A stretch of 24,519 bases of DNA from positions 1-24,519 of the forward strand of contig DASQEG010000470.1 in assembly GCA_035633775.1 (NCBI GenBank), in the 5' to 3' direction. Positions 2,083 through 11,382 of the stretch are shown here, piece after piece. The notes under the pieces are model-generated. The model was not told the DNA's origin. It saw only the letters and a list, made by a program, of their open reading frames with translations, and made no database searches. The position numbers and the translations under genes were made by a program. Source of the DNA: Bryobacteraceae bacterium. Lineage in GTDB: Bacteria > Acidobacteriota > Terriglobia > Bryobacterales > Bryobacteraceae. The first letter of the stretch is position 1; each line of letters starts with the position of its first letter.

Positions 2083-4902
2083 ATGCCGACCAATTTCAGA
2101 GAATTCTTTCCCCAGGAACTTGCCTCCCTGCTCGCGGCATTTCCATTCCAGCGCAGAATCACGAACGTCCACCTGCACCATACATGGCGTCCCAATCACT
2201 CTCAATTTCGCGGACTTACGTCAATCGAGAGCATGGACCGCTTCCATACGGAACAGGGATTTGGCGGGCTTGCACAGCATTTGACGCTGGCGCCTTCCGG
2301 ATCTTTATGGACCGGGCGCGACTGGAATCGCAGGCCCGCTTCCGCACGGGGCTTTAATGGCAACAATATCGCCGGCCCGTTTATGATCGAGATGGTCGGT
2401 GATTTCGACAGCGGCAAGGATCCGTTCATCGATCCGCAACGCAGCAGTGCTATTGAAACAGTCGCTACACTTCTGCGGTTTTTCGGCTTGCCGGTAAGCA
2501 GTCTGCGATTCCACAACCACATGTCGTCCAAGACGTGTCCGGGCTCGGGCCTCGACTATGACGGCTTCTGCGGTGAGGTCGAGGCGGCGATGAGCGCACG
2601 GCGTGATCTGTCGTCAGGCACCGGCGGCGAGCGCGGGCCTTTTCCCGAGTCGGCGCGTCTCGGCGCTCCGAACTCTTCACGGATTAGCGACCTGGTGGAT
2701 TCGTTGCGCGCGACTACGGGCGGGGCGCGCGATCTGGAATCTGATGCTGAGCCTCCAGAGGAACTTGCGGACCGGGACACGATCCTGATGATGCGTGGCG
2801 AAGGTGTTCCGTCCGGTGCACGCGGGGGTGACCGTGACCTAACGTCGGACGAGTTGGAAGAACTGCGGCCTTACGCCATCAATCTCCGTCAGGGCCGGCT
2901 CTCGAAAGGAGGCATCTTCAACACATCGAAGGGCCACGTTGAAGCGATTTTCCGTGAGCATCTGGTGCGTGCCTATGATTCGAAGCCCCAAGGTGATCCG
3001 CTGCGGATTGTGCTCTGGGCGCACGGCGGGCTGGTGAGCGAAGCAAAGGGCCTCGGCATTGCACATCTGCAGCACAAATGGTGGCTGTCCAATGGATGCT
3101 ATCCAATCCACTTTATTTGGGAATCGGGGCTGCTCGAAACATTGCTGCCCTTCTTCGGCCGTGGTGTTACGCGTGATTTCTTCGATTTCACCAGCGATTT
3201 TGCAATTGAGCAGGCGGTTCGAGTTCCTGGCAGCGGTATATGGGGGCTGATGAAGCTAAGTGCCGAAGCCGCTTCGACTGCTGAAGACGGAGGCGCCCTG
3301 CTGGCAGCACGCCTGCTTGCCGAATTCTGCAGCTCACGGCCGGAGGTGGAACTGTATGCGTGTGGCCACAGTGCCGGCTCGATTTTTCACAACCACTTTC
3401 TTCCCGCGTGCCGGGCGTCAGGCGTGCCGAACTTCGAGTGGGTCCACTACCTGGCCCCTGCTGTTCGGGTGAACAACTTTCTCGAGAAGCTGCATCCGCT
3501 CGTCGGCGATTACGTAAAGCGCATCTCAATTTACACGATGCACGAGGCGCTTGAGAAGGACGACAACGTGGCGCGTGTATATCGGAAGAGCCTGCTCTAT
3601 CTGATTCGAAATGCGCTTAACCTCGAGTTCCGTTCCGACATCCTGGGTCTGGAGGAGTGCCTGCTTGAGAACGATCAGCTGAAAGCGACCTTCGGGCTCG
3701 CAGGGCACAGTTCCGCCGCAGGCGATTGTGTCTTCTCGAAGACCTCGTCCGACAGCGGCCGAAATGCGAGCCGGTCTACAACACATGGCGGCTTCGACAA
3801 CGATCGGCCCACCATGCACTCGATTGCTCGCCGCGTGCTGAAGATGAACGATTCGGACCCACTTAAGGCCGACTTTCCCGTGCAGGCCAGCCGGGATCTG
3901 TTTGCGGGCATGGAGTTTCCGATGCCTGCCGTGCCGTCCGTATCCACCTCGATGCCCCAGGCAACTGCGGCAGTCGCAGCCGGATGTACCGTCCCCAGCC
4001 GCGGTGGAAGTGGCGGTAAGACGATTGCGCTTTGTGTGGGCATCGACACCTATCCCACTGCCCCTCTGAACGGTTGCGTCCATGACGCACGACTTTGGGC
4101 GTCGACGTTCCGAGACCTCGGCTTTGATGAAGTACGCATGCTCGTGAACAGCGAGGCTACGCACGCCCGCATGACGGCCGAACTGACGCGGCTTGTCTCC
4201 GAGGCTCAGTCCGGCGACTGCATTGTCTTTCAGTACGCAGGCCACGGAACGCACGTGCCTGACATGGAGGGCGATGAAGAAAAAGGCGAGGACCAGGCGT
4301 TTGTTCCTGTCGATTACGAGGCAGGCAGGCACCTGATCGATGACGAGGTAAGGCTCATCTTCTCGCGAAAGAGTCCCGGCGTGAATCTTACCTGCTTCAT
4401 CGACTGCTGCCACTCGGGGACCATCACGCGCATGCTCGGTGGAGGTCGACCGCCCTTCGCGCCGGGCGAGAACGCGCGCTTCCTCAAACTGACAGACACC
4501 GAAAAGGACAGGTACCGCGAGTTCCGGAGCACGCACCCGGTGAGCAGGGCGCAGCCGGGGTTCTATGCCGTGTCCTTCTCCGCATGTCAGGACCACGAAG
4601 TAGCGCTTGAGAATGCAGGCCAGGGTGATTTCACTCGCAGGGCAGTGCCGCTCCTCCGCAGCGGTTTTCGCAAGATGTCGCACGCCGATTTCCAGCGTCA
4701 GGTGGTTGGGGCGTTCGGCTCCGCACCGCGGCAGAACCCTAAACTTGACTGCGATGCAGCTGTCACGAACAATGTCCTGCTGGCATGCGTGGCGCCGTCG
4801 GGTCAAATTAAAGCTGTGTCCTCCGGGGGAGGCGTCGACGTCGTGGATCGTATCCAGGCCGGCCTGCGGCAGATCAGTCTTGATCTTGAAACCCTGAGGT
4901 AA
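2083..4902 (+). CDS. Three-enzyme fusion, 939 aa: Amidase_2/PGRP-like N-acetylmuramoyl-L-alanine amidase (aa ~22-165), alpha/beta hydrolase (aa ~255-590), metacaspase/peptidase C14 (aa ~646-900)
   Basis: Amidase: VHLHHT (H32/H33), E103 in MIEMVG, H144-x7-C152 in HNHMSSKTCPG. Hydrolase: HGG 314-316, GHSAG with S430, D493/D494, H568 in THGGFDND. Caspase: IALCVGIDTY, QYAGHG (H721), IDCCHSG (C776), FSACQDHE. No signal peptide. Confidence 0.9.
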   Translation: MPTNFREFFPQELASLLAAFPFQRRITNVHLHHTWRPNHSQFRGLTSIESMDRFHTEQGFGGLAQHLTLAPSGSLWTGRDWNRRPASARGFNGNNIAGPFMIEMVGDFDSGKDPFIDPQRSSAIETVATLLRFFGLPVSSLRFHNHMSSKTCPGSGLDYDGFCGEVEAAMSARRDLSSGTGGERGPFPESARLGAPNSSRISDLVDSLRATTGGARDLESDAEPPEELADRDTILMMRGEGVPSGARGGDRDLTSDELEELRPYAINLRQGRLSKGGIFNTSKGHVEAIFREHLVRAYDSKPQGDPLRIVLWAHGGLVSEAKGLGIAHLQHKWWLSNGCYPIHFIWESGLLETLLPFFGRGVTRDFFDFTSDFAIEQAVRVPGSGIWGLMKLSAEAASTAEDGGALLAARLLAEFCSSRPEVELYACGHSAGSIFHNHFLPACRASGVPNFEWVHYLAPAVRVNNFLEKLHPLVGDYVKRISIYTMHEALEKDDNVARVYRKSLLYLIRNALNLEFRSDILGLEECLLENDQLKATFGLAGHSSAAGDCVFSKTSSDSGRNASRSTTHGGFDNDRPTMHSIARRVLKMNDSDPLKADFPVQASRDLFAGMEFPMPAVPSVSTSMPQATAAVAAGCTVPSRGGSGGKTIALCVGIDTYPTAPLNGCVHDARLWASTFRDLGFDEVRMLVNSEATHARMTAELTRLVSEAQSGDCIVFQYAGHGTHVPDMEGDEEKGEDQAFVPVDYEAGRHLIDDEVRLIFSRKSPGVNLTCFIDCCHSGTITRMLGGGRPPFAPGENARFLKLTDTEKDRYREFRSTHPVSRAQPGFYAVSFSACQDHEVALENAGQGDFTRRAVPLLRSGFRKMSHADFQRQVVGAFGSAPRQNPKLDCDAAVTNNVLLACVAPSGQIKAVSSGGGVDVVDRIQAGLRQISLDLETLR

Positions 4903-4909
4903 AGAGCGA

Positions 4910-6544
4910 ATGGAGTTTCAATGGGGCAGCAGGATCACCAAGCCTGCCAATTGCATTCCCTATGAGCGGACGGCGGATGACCCTGTCTTCCGTCCGCTCC
5001 GCATCTTCGCCGTCGACCCGCTGGTGTCTCAGTTCGAAGGCGCGATAGCTACCGTTCAGGTCCCGTACGAGCCGCTGAAGCCGGGCCCTGTCGGTAGCAC
5101 CATGGAAGTTCTCTGTCACGACGGGTATCAGGAGAACGAGCCCGCCGATCTCGACAACCCGCGAGTCCTGATTGAGAACGGGTACGCTCCATCGGTAACG
5201 AACCCGAAGTTCCATCACCAGATGACGTATGCAGTTGCATCGCTGATCTGTGCAGCGTTTCGCAAAGCGCTCGGGCGGCAGATTCTCTGGGGCTTTGACG
5301 CACCGCGCCTGCGAATACGGCCTCACGTTCCCGGAGTGGCGGATGCGTGCTACGACAAGGCAACGGGAGAACTGCGCTTCGGCTACAGCAAGGATGGTGA
5401 CGGGCGGTACGTGTTCGCAGCCCTGTCCCACGACGTGATTGCACACGAGTGTGCCCATGCGCTGCTCGATGCGCTTCGCACTCACCTCAACTTGCGTTCG
5501 AATCCGGACGTTGAGGCTTTCCACGAAGGTTTCGCCGACCTTGTCGCACTCCTGCAACACTTCACCTATCCAGAGGTAGTGCGCGCCGCGATTCAGAAGG
5601 CCGGCGGGAACCTGGCGCGCGCGAGTCTGCTGACCGAGATCGCCAGCGTGCTCGGCTACAACATCCCTGCAGCAGCCGAGCGCACCGGAGTGCGGAGCGG
5701 TGTCCGTGTCGAGGCGGAGAACGTTGACGACCCGCACACTCGCGGATCAAGGCTGGTTGTAGCGGTCTTCGACGCGTATCTCACGCTATTCCGTCGCAAG
5801 ACGGCACCCTTCATCCGGCTGGCAACGGGTGGCACGGGAGTACTTCCGCCCGGTGCACTGCCGTACGACCTGGTCGAGGTGCTGGCAAAGCGCGCATCGC
5901 GACTGGCAGAGCAGATCCTGCGCATCTGCATTCGTGCTATCGACTACTGCCCGCCCGTCGATCTGGAGTTGGGTGAGTTCCTCCGTGCGATGATCACGGC
6001 GGATCGGGACGTTGCGCCGAACGATCCGTACGGATATCGTGAGGCGTTCATCGATGCATTTCGCAAACAGGGCATCTACCCAAGCGGCGTGAGCATGCTC
6101 AGCGAAGACGCGCTTGTCTGGGGCACGCCCGAGATGCGTATTCCCTCCATAGACGATCTGACGTTTGCTCAACTGCAGTTCCGTGGCGATCCTGCGACTC
6201 CGGCCAGCCTTGACGAGATTCAGAGGCAGGCCACCGCTCTGGGCAGGATCGTCACAGACAGGCGCTACGCCTATGTATTCGGGTTGAGTCCGAGTGATCA
6301 GGGCGCCAGTCCTGCAAGCATCGAATCGATCCGCACAGCGCGGCGGATCGGGCCGTACGAGTCAGTCGTCTTCGATCTGGTCGCCGAAGTAACACAGGTC
6401 CGGGTACACGATGGCATCAGAGTTTATGGGGGCTCAACGATCATCATCGACCCCGAGGGGCGGGTGCGGTACAGCATTGCCAAGAACGTCCTCAGCCGGC
6501 GTCGGTGGGAGGCGCACCGTGAATACCAACACGACGCCCGTTAG
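4910..6544 (+). CDS. Zinc metallopeptidase (gluzincin, M4/M36-like fold) without signal or propeptide, 544 aa
   Basis: HDVIAHECAHALLD (H179-E180-H183) and FHEGFAD (E206, third ligand). Starts 7 nt after the fusion stop, with GAGG at 4896-4899. N-terminus is hydrophilic. Confidence 0.85.
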   Translation: MEFQWGSRITKPANCIPYERTADDPVFRPLRIFAVDPLVSQFEGAIATVQVPYEPLKPGPVGSTMEVLCHDGYQENEPADLDNPRVLIENGYAPSVTNPKFHHQMTYAVASLICAAFRKALGRQILWGFDAPRLRIRPHVPGVADACYDKATGELRFGYSKDGDGRYVFAALSHDVIAHECAHALLDALRTHLNLRSNPDVEAFHEGFADLVALLQHFTYPEVVRAAIQKAGGNLARASLLTEIASVLGYNIPAAAERTGVRSGVRVEAENVDDPHTRGSRLVVAVFDAYLTLFRRKTAPFIRLATGGTGVLPPGALPYDLVEVLAKRASRLAEQILRICIRAIDYCPPVDLELGEFLRAMITADRDVAPNDPYGYREAFIDAFRKQGIYPSGVSMLSEDALVWGTPEMRIPSIDDLTFAQLQFRGDPATPASLDEIQRQATALGRIVTDRRYAYVFGLSPSDQGASPASIESIRTARRIGPYESVVFDLVAEVTQVRVHDGIRVYGGSTIIIDPEGRVRYSIAKNVLSRRRWEAHREYQHDAR

Positions 6545-9033: not shown

Positions 9034-11382
9034 ATGCATCAGAGATTTGCAACCTCAGCAATTGTTATCCTCAGCGCACTGGCTGCACGGGCGCAAGGAC
9101 CTTTGAAACCGGCCGTGCCCGAGCCTGCCCGCGTCGACACTCACAAGGCAATCTCGGCAAAACTGGCAAGGACCGCCACAGGGCAGGGACTGACGCTGAA
9201 GTGGCGCCGCAACGGCAGCGTGCAGTCGGCCGCGGGATTCAGGTCTCGCGCGTATGCGGGGACGAAGCTGCAGGCCGCTCAATCGTTCCTTGCCGAGCAT
9301 TCAGAACTGGTCGGGCGCGCAGAAGTCTTGCCCTTCAATGAGAGGCGTCTTGGCCAGCGCACATTCATTCGCTTCCAGCAGCGGTTGCACGGCATTCCGC
9401 TTCGAGGCGCACATCTTGTAGTCAGTCTCGGCTCGGACAACTCCGTCGGCGGGGTTAGCGCACACCTTGAGCCCGCCGCGCAGGTGCGCGGCGAGTGGCG
9501 GCTGACGGCACAAGACGCGATCACACGGGCGGTCCGGGAGCACGGTGCCGCGGCCTCGGACACACCTACTGCTGAAAAGGAGTACGTGCTCGTGGAACAA
9601 AACGCCGTTCCCGCCTGGCGTGTGCGATTCGACTCGGCTGACCCTGCAGGTACCTGGGAGTACGTCGTAGCGGCCGACGATGGCCTGATTCTCGAACGGC
9701 AGAACCTCCGCCGCGGCGTCAGTGCACAAGGTTATGCTTATCCGCGGAATCCCGTCCGAGGCGAGCGTGAACGCGTGATGCTGGACAATCTTGGGACTGA
9801 CGGTTCGCTGACCAGCGCACAAACCAAAGTCTTCTCTTACCTGCCTGCTCTGAAAGGCCAGGTTGAACCAGGAACTGTGGTGCAGGGCGCGGCCATGCGA
9901 GGCGGCAACTTTCTGTACGAGGCCGATGACGCGCGAGCCGCCGAGGTGCAACTCTACTGGGGCATGGAAACCGCGAGCGCACGGTTTCGCGCACTCGGTT
10001 TCGAGGGCTTCTCGCAGCCACTTCAGGGTGTGGTCCTCTACCAGGACTGGGACCCGGAGAAGAAGCGCTTCATCGGGGCGGACAATGCGTTCTTCAAGCC
10101 GGGCGCGTTCGGTGAAGGCCGCGGTGGTATTTTCTTCTACCTGACGAGCCGACAGGGCGACACTTCTCTCGACACCGACGTCATTTTTCACGAGTACACG
10201 CATGCGGTGGTCAACGAACTCGTGGGTCCGCGACAGAGTGCAGGCTTCCGAGCACTAAACGAAGGCACAGCCGATTACTTTTCCAGCAGCTTCCTCGACG
10301 ACCCTGTGATGGCGGAGTATGTGGCGAAGATCTTCGGCCTGCGGTCCCCGTTCCTTCGCAGGACCGACAATGAGCAAGCCTGGCCCTACAGCGCAGTTGG
10401 AGAAGAGCACGCCGACGGCAACATCTGGAGCGGCGCCTTGTGGGATGTTCGGCGCGTGCTCGGTGCGGCAGCAACGGATGAGATCGCAATTAACACCGTT
10501 GCGTTCCTGTCGCCCGACGCAGAGTTCTACGATGCGGCAGAGATGGCTGTGCTCACGGCTGAGGAGCTTTATGGTGAGCGCACGGCGGAGCTGGTCGCTA
10601 AAGTGATGGGGCAGCGCGGTCTGCTCACGCAGGCCGCAGAAACTGCCGCGAATTCACGATGGCTTGAGTCTGGCGCCTCTGCCGAGGGAACGATTGCAGC
10701 TGCCAGGCCCGGGTACCTCCTTCTCGGCGAGCAGCAATACAGGATCGAAGTGCCGCATCGCGCGACAAAGTTGAACGTTCGCGTACGGGCGAACAGCGAC
10801 GCGCGATTCTACATCCGTTATCGCGTGCCGGTCACCATCGAACAAGGCAAGCTGCAGGCCGAACAAATGTCGGACACCGGGACGAGTCTGGGCGGGTACC
10901 TGTCTGTTGAAAATACCCCGGAGCTCCAGGCCGGCACATACTACGTCGCTGTCGTCAACGCTTCAACGAGCCCGCTTGAGTATAGTGTGCGAGTTGAGGT
11001 GGACGACTACAACCCCGCCGCTCGTCCTGCCCTTATCGCTGTCCGTGACGGTGAGACTGTCCAGGGGTCGCTGCCGTCAGGACCGTTCCTCGGCTCGAGG
11101 CAGTTCGCGGTCGAGGTGCCCGAAGGCACGTCTGCCCTGTCCCTCACGCTGGAAGGTGACGAGGACGTTGACCTGTACGTTCGTCAGGGCCGTTTCGTGA
11201 CCGTCAACGGCACCGGGTTCCCGGAAGCCGATCTGGTCGCCAACAGCCCCGACACCCGTGAGTACCTTCGCATTACAGGAGAGAACGGCGGGCCCATACC
11301 GCCCGGCGTCTACGTTGTAGGGACATATAACTACAGTCAGGCAACCACGCGCTTTCGCTTAACGGCCCGCTTTGAGCGGTGA
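9034..11382 (+). CDS. Secreted M36/M4-family zinc metallopeptidase with FTP/PepSY propeptide and two C-terminal PPC-like beta domains, 782 aa
   Basis: Signal peptide, propeptide-like FIRFQQRLHGIPL and AWRVRF...WEYVVAADDG, VIFHEYTH (H386-E387-H390), LNEGTADY, EEHADGNIWSGALWD, and repeated YRIEVP/FAVEVP...DxDxYxR modules. Confidence 0.88.
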   Translation: MHQRFATSAIVILSALAARAQGPLKPAVPEPARVDTHKAISAKLARTATGQGLTLKWRRNGSVQSAAGFRSRAYAGTKLQAAQSFLAEHSELVGRAEVLPFNERRLGQRTFIRFQQRLHGIPLRGAHLVVSLGSDNSVGGVSAHLEPAAQVRGEWRLTAQDAITRAVREHGAAASDTPTAEKEYVLVEQNAVPAWRVRFDSADPAGTWEYVVAADDGLILERQNLRRGVSAQGYAYPRNPVRGERERVMLDNLGTDGSLTSAQTKVFSYLPALKGQVEPGTVVQGAAMRGGNFLYEADDARAAEVQLYWGMETASARFRALGFEGFSQPLQGVVLYQDWDPEKKRFIGADNAFFKPGAFGEGRGGIFFYLTSRQGDTSLDTDVIFHEYTHAVVNELVGPRQSAGFRALNEGTADYFSSSFLDDPVMAEYVAKIFGLRSPFLRRTDNEQAWPYSAVGEEHADGNIWSGALWDVRRVLGAAATDEIAINTVAFLSPDAEFYDAAEMAVLTAEELYGERTAELVAKVMGQRGLLTQAAETAANSRWLESGASAEGTIAAARPGYLLLGEQQYRIEVPHRATKLNVRVRANSDARFYIRYRVPVTIEQGKLQAEQMSDTGTSLGGYLSVENTPELQAGTYYVAVVNASTSPLEYSVRVEVDDYNPAARPALIAVRDGETVQGSLPSGPFLGSRQFAVEVPEGTSALSLTLEGDEDVDLYVRQGRFVTVNGTGFPEADLVANSPDTREYLRITGENGGPIPPGVYVVGTYNYSQATTRFRLTARFER

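Follow-up and report, generated by a model that had tools for sequence, protein, structure and literature searches.

Conserved arginines as candidate self-processing sites in a bacterial amidase-hydrolase-metacaspase fusion

A three-domain fusion and its partner gene

We analyzed a 24,519-nucleotide stretch of DNA from a Bryobacteraceae bacterium (assembly GCA_035633775.1, contig DASQEG010000470.1), referred to here as the window. One gene in the window encodes a 939-residue protein, P0001, that carries an amidase-like, a hydrolase-like and a metacaspase-type domain in a single chain, and it is followed by a gene for a zinc peptidase-like protein, P0002. A preliminary description of the sequence had proposed that P0001 cuts itself at repeated R-D-[L/F] triplets. 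We found that the triplet is not conserved as a code, and that single arginines in the flexible segments of the protein are conserved across the family and are candidate cut sites for its own protease domain. The genes and domains of the cassette are:

2083..4902, + strand: gene for the 939-residue tri-domain protein P0001 (Amidase_2, alpha/beta-hydrolase-like and C14 metacaspase domains), from the open reading frame, its translation and Pfam PF01510 and PF00656
2149..2544, + strand: Amidase_2 domain of the PGRP/T7-lysozyme type, residues 23-154 (Pfam, 37.8 bits, cut-off 26)
2836..3882, + strand: middle alpha/beta-hydrolase-like domain, residues 252-600 (GHSAGS elbow, invariant columns, AlphaFold2 model)
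4021..4797, + strand: C14 metacaspase-type domain, residues 647-905 (Pfam, Foldseek, alignment with TbMCA2 and Yca1, invariant columns)
4910..6544, + strand: partner gene for P0002, 544 residues, a thermolysin/M36-like zinc peptidase (HExxH motif, invariant columns, structure model)

More than 400 full-length homologues of P0001 were found at about 40-46% identity, and the genomes of at least 544 species, from many phyla, contain relatives. Conservation is given throughout from an alignment of 118 sequences (A1) in P0001 numbering. Pfam matched Amidase_2 at residues 23-154 and Peptidase_C14 at residues 647-859, with no match between them. In the Amidase_2 domain, H30, H32, H33, H144 and C152 are invariant. 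An AlphaFold2 model built from 118 homologues shows three well-folded domains (mean predicted local distance difference test, pLDDT, 85). Segments with pLDDT below 50 lie at residues 178-188, 213-249, 362-367, 602-642, 779-789 and 910-919.

The Peptidase_C14 match (PF00656) scored 86.4 bits against a cut-off of 21.4. The domain has a caspase-hemoglobinase fold, with GSU0716 (3bij; E value 1e-16, template modelling score by target 0.78), AtMC9, AtMC4, Yca1 and TbMCA2 as the top Foldseek matches. The catalytic dyad H721/C776 is invariant in the 118 sequences and aligns with the dyad motifs of TbMCA2 and Yca1. The residues of the acidic S1 pocket (C665, D668 and D774) are likewise invariant, and the motifs G-C-x-x-D and D-x-C-H-S-G align with those of TbMCA2. 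This confirms the earlier remark that D774, beside the catalytic cysteine, fits a basic P1 pocket, since the residue falls in the metacaspase S1 motif. The domain is thus a C14 protease of the metacaspase type, with an acidic S1 pocket and a predicted specificity for Arg or Lys at P1. The accompanying premise that metacaspases cut after these residues agrees with the literature, in which all characterised C14 proteases except caspases cleave after Arg or Lys, and the orthocaspase MaOC1 autoprocesses upon expression (PMC5756287). An R|D bond is plausible because AtMC9 has a strong P1' preference for acidic residues (PMC6460961).

The middle domain has a GHSAGS nucleophile elbow, with S430, H568 and E491 invariant and D494 kept in at least 90% of sequences. 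Searches of Pfam, NCBIfam and PADLOC gave no match for the middle domain or the partner and only a generic caspase match, and a search of PDB sequences for the middle domain returned noise only. The ESM Atlas placed it near DUF900 and lipase-like clusters, and predicted structures there show the same fold in papain-like protease fusions with GH19 or muramidase domains. Among its phmmer relatives are free-standing hydrolases with no protease, whose first residue lies 2-21 positions ahead of that of L253 and whose last lies 4-14 past P599. This puts R247 and R604 at natural domain ends, R604 lying five residues past the conserved F-P (598-599) where the free-standing hydrolases end.

We also looked at the gene neighbourhoods of these relatives. 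At L087:3948-6578, an unfused caspase-like protease gene of the CHAT/C25 type lies directly upstream of a 525-residue hydrolase relative with the loop GGRRGW. At L083:3250-5628, a papain-like C1 peptidase is fused N-terminally to the hydrolase relative, and a Peptidase_M15_4 gene follows. Two stand-alone, protease-less relatives lack a loop arginine; one lies beside a ThiF/JAB/UQ_con ubiquitin-like gene set (L085:1-6080) and the other beside an RHS-repeat protein (L084:5001-9752). The loop arginine is present in four of four relatives with a protease versus two of five without, a sample too small to count. At L089:4265-6946, a Bact_GSDM frame stands in place of the amidase and runs into a related hydrolase-C14 module, with at least three frameshifts from an error-prone assembly or a pseudogene; genes for a Peptidase_C11, a CHAT and a metallo-beta-lactamase-fold protein follow. 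The gasdermin in the amidase position suggests that the N-terminal effector is interchangeable, and gasdermin is among the protease-associated effector domains with prior experimental study (10.1101/2025.11.14.688446). A cell-envelope-directed domain, the middle hydrolase and a cysteine protease thus form a recurring theme. The apparent split or stand-alone forms P0124, P0128, P0131 (L082) and probably P0141 are the fusion itself in frameshifted assemblies rather than natural splits, and were set aside.

The gene for P0002 starts 8 bases downstream of the P0001 gene. The residues H179-E-x-x-H183, H205, E206 and D210 are invariant, and the model (pLDDT 91) matches thermolysin, vibriolysin, LasB and the M36 fungalysins. 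Of 80 related loci, 67 have a P0002-like gene immediately downstream. The partner was unseen in the other 13, of which about nine had downstream room and several were clipped by contig ends. P0002 also carries an invariant R262 (motif L-R-[ST]-A) in its sole lower-confidence loop (pLDDT 56-70), 14 residues ahead of the invariant H276. R262 probably corresponds to the active-site arginine of thermolysin and was left out of the candidate cut sites.

Triplets and conserved arginines

The R-D-[L/F] triplets and the conserved arginines of P0001 are located as follows:

2602..2610, + strand: R174-D-L, not conserved (Arg in 17%; column consensus Ala)
2728..2751, + strand: R216 with the island R-x-[DE]-P-x-D-A-E223, P1' G/A/T/S, in low-pLDDT segment 213-249 (Arg in 90%)
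2821..2826, + strand: R247-G248, P1' mostly Gly, at the end of the disordered linker, six residues ahead of the hydrolase fold (Arg in 92%)
2833..2841, + strand: R251-D-L, Arg not conserved (9%), L253 alone kept (alignment A1)
3160..3180, + strand: loop R360-G-V-T-R364-D-F, between helix 350-359 and lid helix 370-399 (alignment, model)
3892..3900, + strand: R604-D-L, P1' G/A/S followed by a hydrophobic residue (Asp in 7 of 118), at the start of disordered linker 602-642 (Arg in 97%)
4111..4119, + strand: sixth triplet, R677-D-L, in caspase-domain helix 665-678 with pLDDT above 90 (Arg in 18%; motif scan, alignment, model)
4429..4431, + strand: R783, invariant (100%), in low-pLDDT loop 779-789 just past the catalytic Cys motif (alignment, model)

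Six arginines stand out by their conservation: R216, R247, R360, R364, R604 and R783. All but R360 lie within low-confidence segments of the model. R360 (Arg in 78%, P1' A/G) directly follows helix 350-359, two residues before such a segment. R364 is Arg in 85%, D365 is kept in 86%, and position 366 is L, I, F or V. The residues flanking the six arginines are mostly less than 40% conserved, substitution by lysine at these sites is almost never seen, and 68 of the 118 homologues have Arg at all six. Among columns conserved at 85% or more, Arg accounts for 4 of 10 in low-pLDDT segments versus 12 of 277 in structured regions (Fisher p = 0.001); R364, at 84.7%, falls just under this cut and is not one of the four. 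One of the R-G motifs that had been suggested as secondary sites, ARGG (R247), is thus well kept. In most homologues the hydrolase loop spans 23-25 residues with two to four arginines before G, A, S or D (for example ...GAR|S..ER|G..R|DFWD...), and 95 of 118 have at least two R-[GASD] sites there. R783 is a candidate maturation site of the p20/p10 type.

The five triplets listed in the preliminary description are all present in frame, with codons that vary between copies: R174-DL (2602), R216-DL (2728), R251-DL (2833), R364-DF (3172) and R604-DL (3892). The list was incomplete, as a sixth, R677-DL (4111), had been overlooked. The expectation from composition is 0.68 in 939 residues, in agreement with the earlier estimate of under one, and the probability of five or more in residue shuffles of P0001 was 0.0006 when the motif is taken as pre-specified. 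The motif was picked after inspecting the sequence, and we hence ran look-elsewhere shuffles of P0001. At least one tripeptide reached five copies in 8% of these, at least one X-Y-[Z1Z2] pattern reached six copies in 60%, and at least one R/K-initiated pattern reached six copies in 8%. The count is therefore real, yet not beyond chance, because the motif was chosen post hoc.

The triplets had been placed mostly at domain junctions, the first three in the linker between amidase and hydrolase. This is roughly right: R216 lies within that disordered linker and R604 at the onset of the hydrolase-caspase linker, R251 is two residues past the first linker, and R174 ends the last amidase helix. R364 is in a low-confidence loop of the hydrolase, as had been supposed. 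The proposed look at the setting of the sites in a model thus separated R216, R364 and R604, in low-pLDDT segments, from R677 in a confident helix and R174 at a helix end.

The family alignment lacks conservation of the triplet, and there is therefore no R-D-[L/F] code. P0004, the closest orthologue (74% identity, also from Bryobacteraceae), lacks R-D-[L/F] entirely; it has RAL, REL, RDI, RDS and QAL at five of the equivalent sites and RDA near the sixth. Across 120 family members the mean is 0.97 triplets per protein against 0.65 expected, and about half of these motifs sit at site 364, where alone the D-L/F part is kept. An alignment of homologues had been suggested to see whether the motifs persist in otherwise divergent linkers; what persists is the single arginine, together with R-D-hydrophobic at 364, and not R-D-[L/F]. 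We consider, with moderate confidence, the repetition to be a coincidence of P0001 overlaid on a genuine family-wide arginine feature. Eye-catching as it is, the R-D-L repetition is unsuitable as a proteome-wide substrate motif.

Proposed self-processing and its alternatives

Our best explanation, which we think has an even chance of being correct, is that P0001 is a self-processing protein of the cytoplasm in which a peptidoglycan-amidase-like domain is joined to a lipase-like alpha/beta hydrolase and an Arg-specific metacaspase. The conserved arginines 216, 247, 360, 364, 604 and 783 would be P1 sites for its own metacaspase domain, a proposal we find about evenly balanced; we infer the cleavage, the protease responsible and the target activated from sequence comparison and analogy. 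The metacaspase domain would cut after these arginines, either within its own chain or in another copy. The three enzymes would come apart at natural domain ends through cuts at R216/R247 and R604. Cuts at R360 and R364 would remove a short peptide ahead of the lid helices of the hydrolase, and so switch on a latent hydrolase as in the LcHydrolase zymogen described below. The original idea that the protein cuts itself into separate enzymes thus survives in the conservation of arginines 216, 364 and 604 (85-97%) in variable, low-pLDDT linkers and in the metacaspase fold, but loses its R-D-[L/F] code. The proposed unlocking of the hydrolase lid by a cut at R364 gains a published analogue in LcHydrolase and is revised to a double cut at R360 and R364, with three cuts in most relatives.

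Several observations weigh against self-processing. The case for it is built on conservation and analogy. R216 lies in an eight-residue island, R..P.DAE (E223 in 99%), amid a variable linker; the island looks like a docking or short linear motif more than a bare cut site, and R216 may do more than mark a cut. Arginines like R247 and R364 are also present in papain fusions and in some relatives that have no protease close by (P0152, P0174), and they may therefore belong to the hydrolase for other reasons. Domain packing in the full-length model is uncertain (predicted template modelling score 0.52), and a complex prediction for the caspase domain (643-909) with the hydrolase (252-600) scored 0.00, below the mark and uninformative either way. 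The surroundings in the window are ordinary metabolism and transport, with no defence island.

These observations could be explained with no self-cleavage at all, the arginines acting as salt bridges or hinges of the lid, as a docking or pseudo-substrate motif that keeps the caspase inactive, or as contacts to the partner, and R-D-[L/F] arising by pure chance. We regard this as possible but rather doubtful. It would account for the unremarkable motif count in the look-elsewhere shuffles, the arginines kept in relatives away from a protease, and the longer island in which R216 is embedded and which ends in D-A-E223, and low pLDDT fits segments that fold only upon binding as well as it fits cut sites. 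It accounts less readily for the 15-fold enrichment of Arg among the conserved columns of flexible segments, for sites that share a small or acidic P1' residue in a protein with a fused protease of predicted Arg specificity, for two sites exactly at natural domain ends, or for the published R|G cuts in a caspase-associated hydrolase (10.1101/2025.11.14.688446).

A different protease could also cut the linkers, either the thermolysin-like partner, before hydrophobic residues such as L606/F607 and F366, or a housekeeping enzyme, with the caspase domain then being an effector. The partner has an intact HExxH...E site, a thermolysin/M36 fold and a place directly downstream in 67/80 loci, and conserved hydrophobics do stand at 366 and 606-607, right after R364-D and R604-x. 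However, the constant element of each site is Arg, which matches the P1 of metacaspases and not the P1' preference of thermolysin; the hydrophobics after R216 and R247 are not conserved; and no partner was seen in 13/80 loci, about nine of them with downstream room. We consider this alternative unlikely. That R-D-[L/F] itself is a specific metacaspase recognition code, with five or six equivalent sites, is highly improbable and largely refuted: six copies against 0.68 expected, the AtMC9 preference for acidic P1' residues (PMC6460961) and the R-D-hydrophobic kept at site 364 speak for it, but there is no copy in the 74%-identical orthologue, Arg is not conserved at three of the six sites (R174, R251, R677), and the family has G, A or S rather than D at P1' of sites 216, 247, 360 and 604.

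If P0001 does process itself, it may tentatively be viewed as a 'polyprotein-like' bacterial death effector, a reading we hold with less confidence than self-processing as such. A single chain would be self-cut at about six arginines, freeing the cell-wall amidase and the protease and activating the lipase-like hydrolase through loss of a few residues before its lid. The N-terminal effector would be interchangeable (amidase or gasdermin; GH19 or muramidase in the papain fusions), and the thermolysin-like partner would be a trigger or a fourth effector. Gating of effectors by proteases is emerging as a common principle in bacterial immunity and cell death, and the present cassette is widespread and also unusual, its protease being fused to two candidate effectors. 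General literature searches for systems of amidase, caspase and metalloprotease returned nothing specific. The present analysis adds a map of the conserved candidate cut sites in this cassette. The few conserved arginines give exact positions for mutagenesis and N-terminal mapping, and the idea of a self-dismantling multi-enzyme zymogen is therefore directly testable.

Two other genes in the window were noted. A gene at 9034-11382, 2.5 kb downstream of the cassette, encodes an ordinary-looking secreted metalloprotease with an FTP propeptide motif and M36 fungalysin and PPC domains. Upstream, a long open reading frame at 495-1958 probably has an internal start at the signal-peptide-like MRTSRFLMSALSALAAG, and its product has a PEGA domain and a weak TrbI-like match.

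Comparison with known systems

The closest parallel to the proposed processing is LcCaspase and LcHydrolase of Lysobacter capsici AZ78. LcCaspase, a caspase-like protease, cuts the alpha/beta-hydrolase zymogen LcHydrolase at R73|G and R117|G (bioRxiv 10.1101/2025.11.14.688446), and both R|G motifs are conserved in 161 homologues (Evans et al., 10.1101/2025.11.14.688446). Once the middle piece is removed the lid can form, and the cleaved protein is lethal to cells (10.1101/2025.11.14.688446). Both systems tie a caspase-like cysteine protease to a lipase-like alpha/beta hydrolase. In the P0001 family this association is by fusion in more than 400 proteins, and one unfused relative adjoins a CHAT protease. 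The hydrolases also resemble each other in the order of an H-G strand, a helix, a second strand, a helix ending in Arg and a small residue, the lid helices and the nucleophile elbow. In both, a conserved Arg followed by a small residue lies past the second core strand and ahead of the lid helices and the nucleophile elbow, and in the P0001 family two or more such sites may surround a short excisable piece, as they do in LcHydrolase. A further point against our reading is that this likeness to LcHydrolase (WP_060410396.1) is one of topology judged by eye; LcHydrolase was not among the matches listed by phmmer for the middle domain.

The two systems also differ. In P0001 the protease and the hydrolase share one polypeptide, to which an Amidase_2 domain is added at the N-terminus. 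P0001 also has a thermolysin-like protein as its conserved gene partner, and it carries no fused sensor domain such as STAND or WD40. The putative excisable piece is 4-15 residues long in the P0001 family, against about 44 for LcHydrolase, and its last site is R|D and not R|G.

The protease domain itself resembles MaOC1 and the type I/II metacaspases (C14B; TbMCA2, Yca1, AtMC4, AtMC9 and GSU0716) in its fold, His-Cys dyad, acidic S1 pocket and conserved Asp cluster. Autoprocessing after Arg or Lys is traditional in that group, and would apply to P0001 by analogy. Unlike in these proteases, the catalytic domain of P0001 is C-terminal, behind two other enzymes, and the candidate sites are mostly outside the protease domain. 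Bacterial systems of gasdermin and a caspase-like protease differ in that the effectors of P0001 are an amidase-like domain and a hydrolase, with no pore former; the gasdermin form at L089 comes from a frameshifted assembly. They share with P0001 a latent effector with a fused or neighbouring caspase-type protease, and the L089 relative carries a Bact_GSDM domain of its own.

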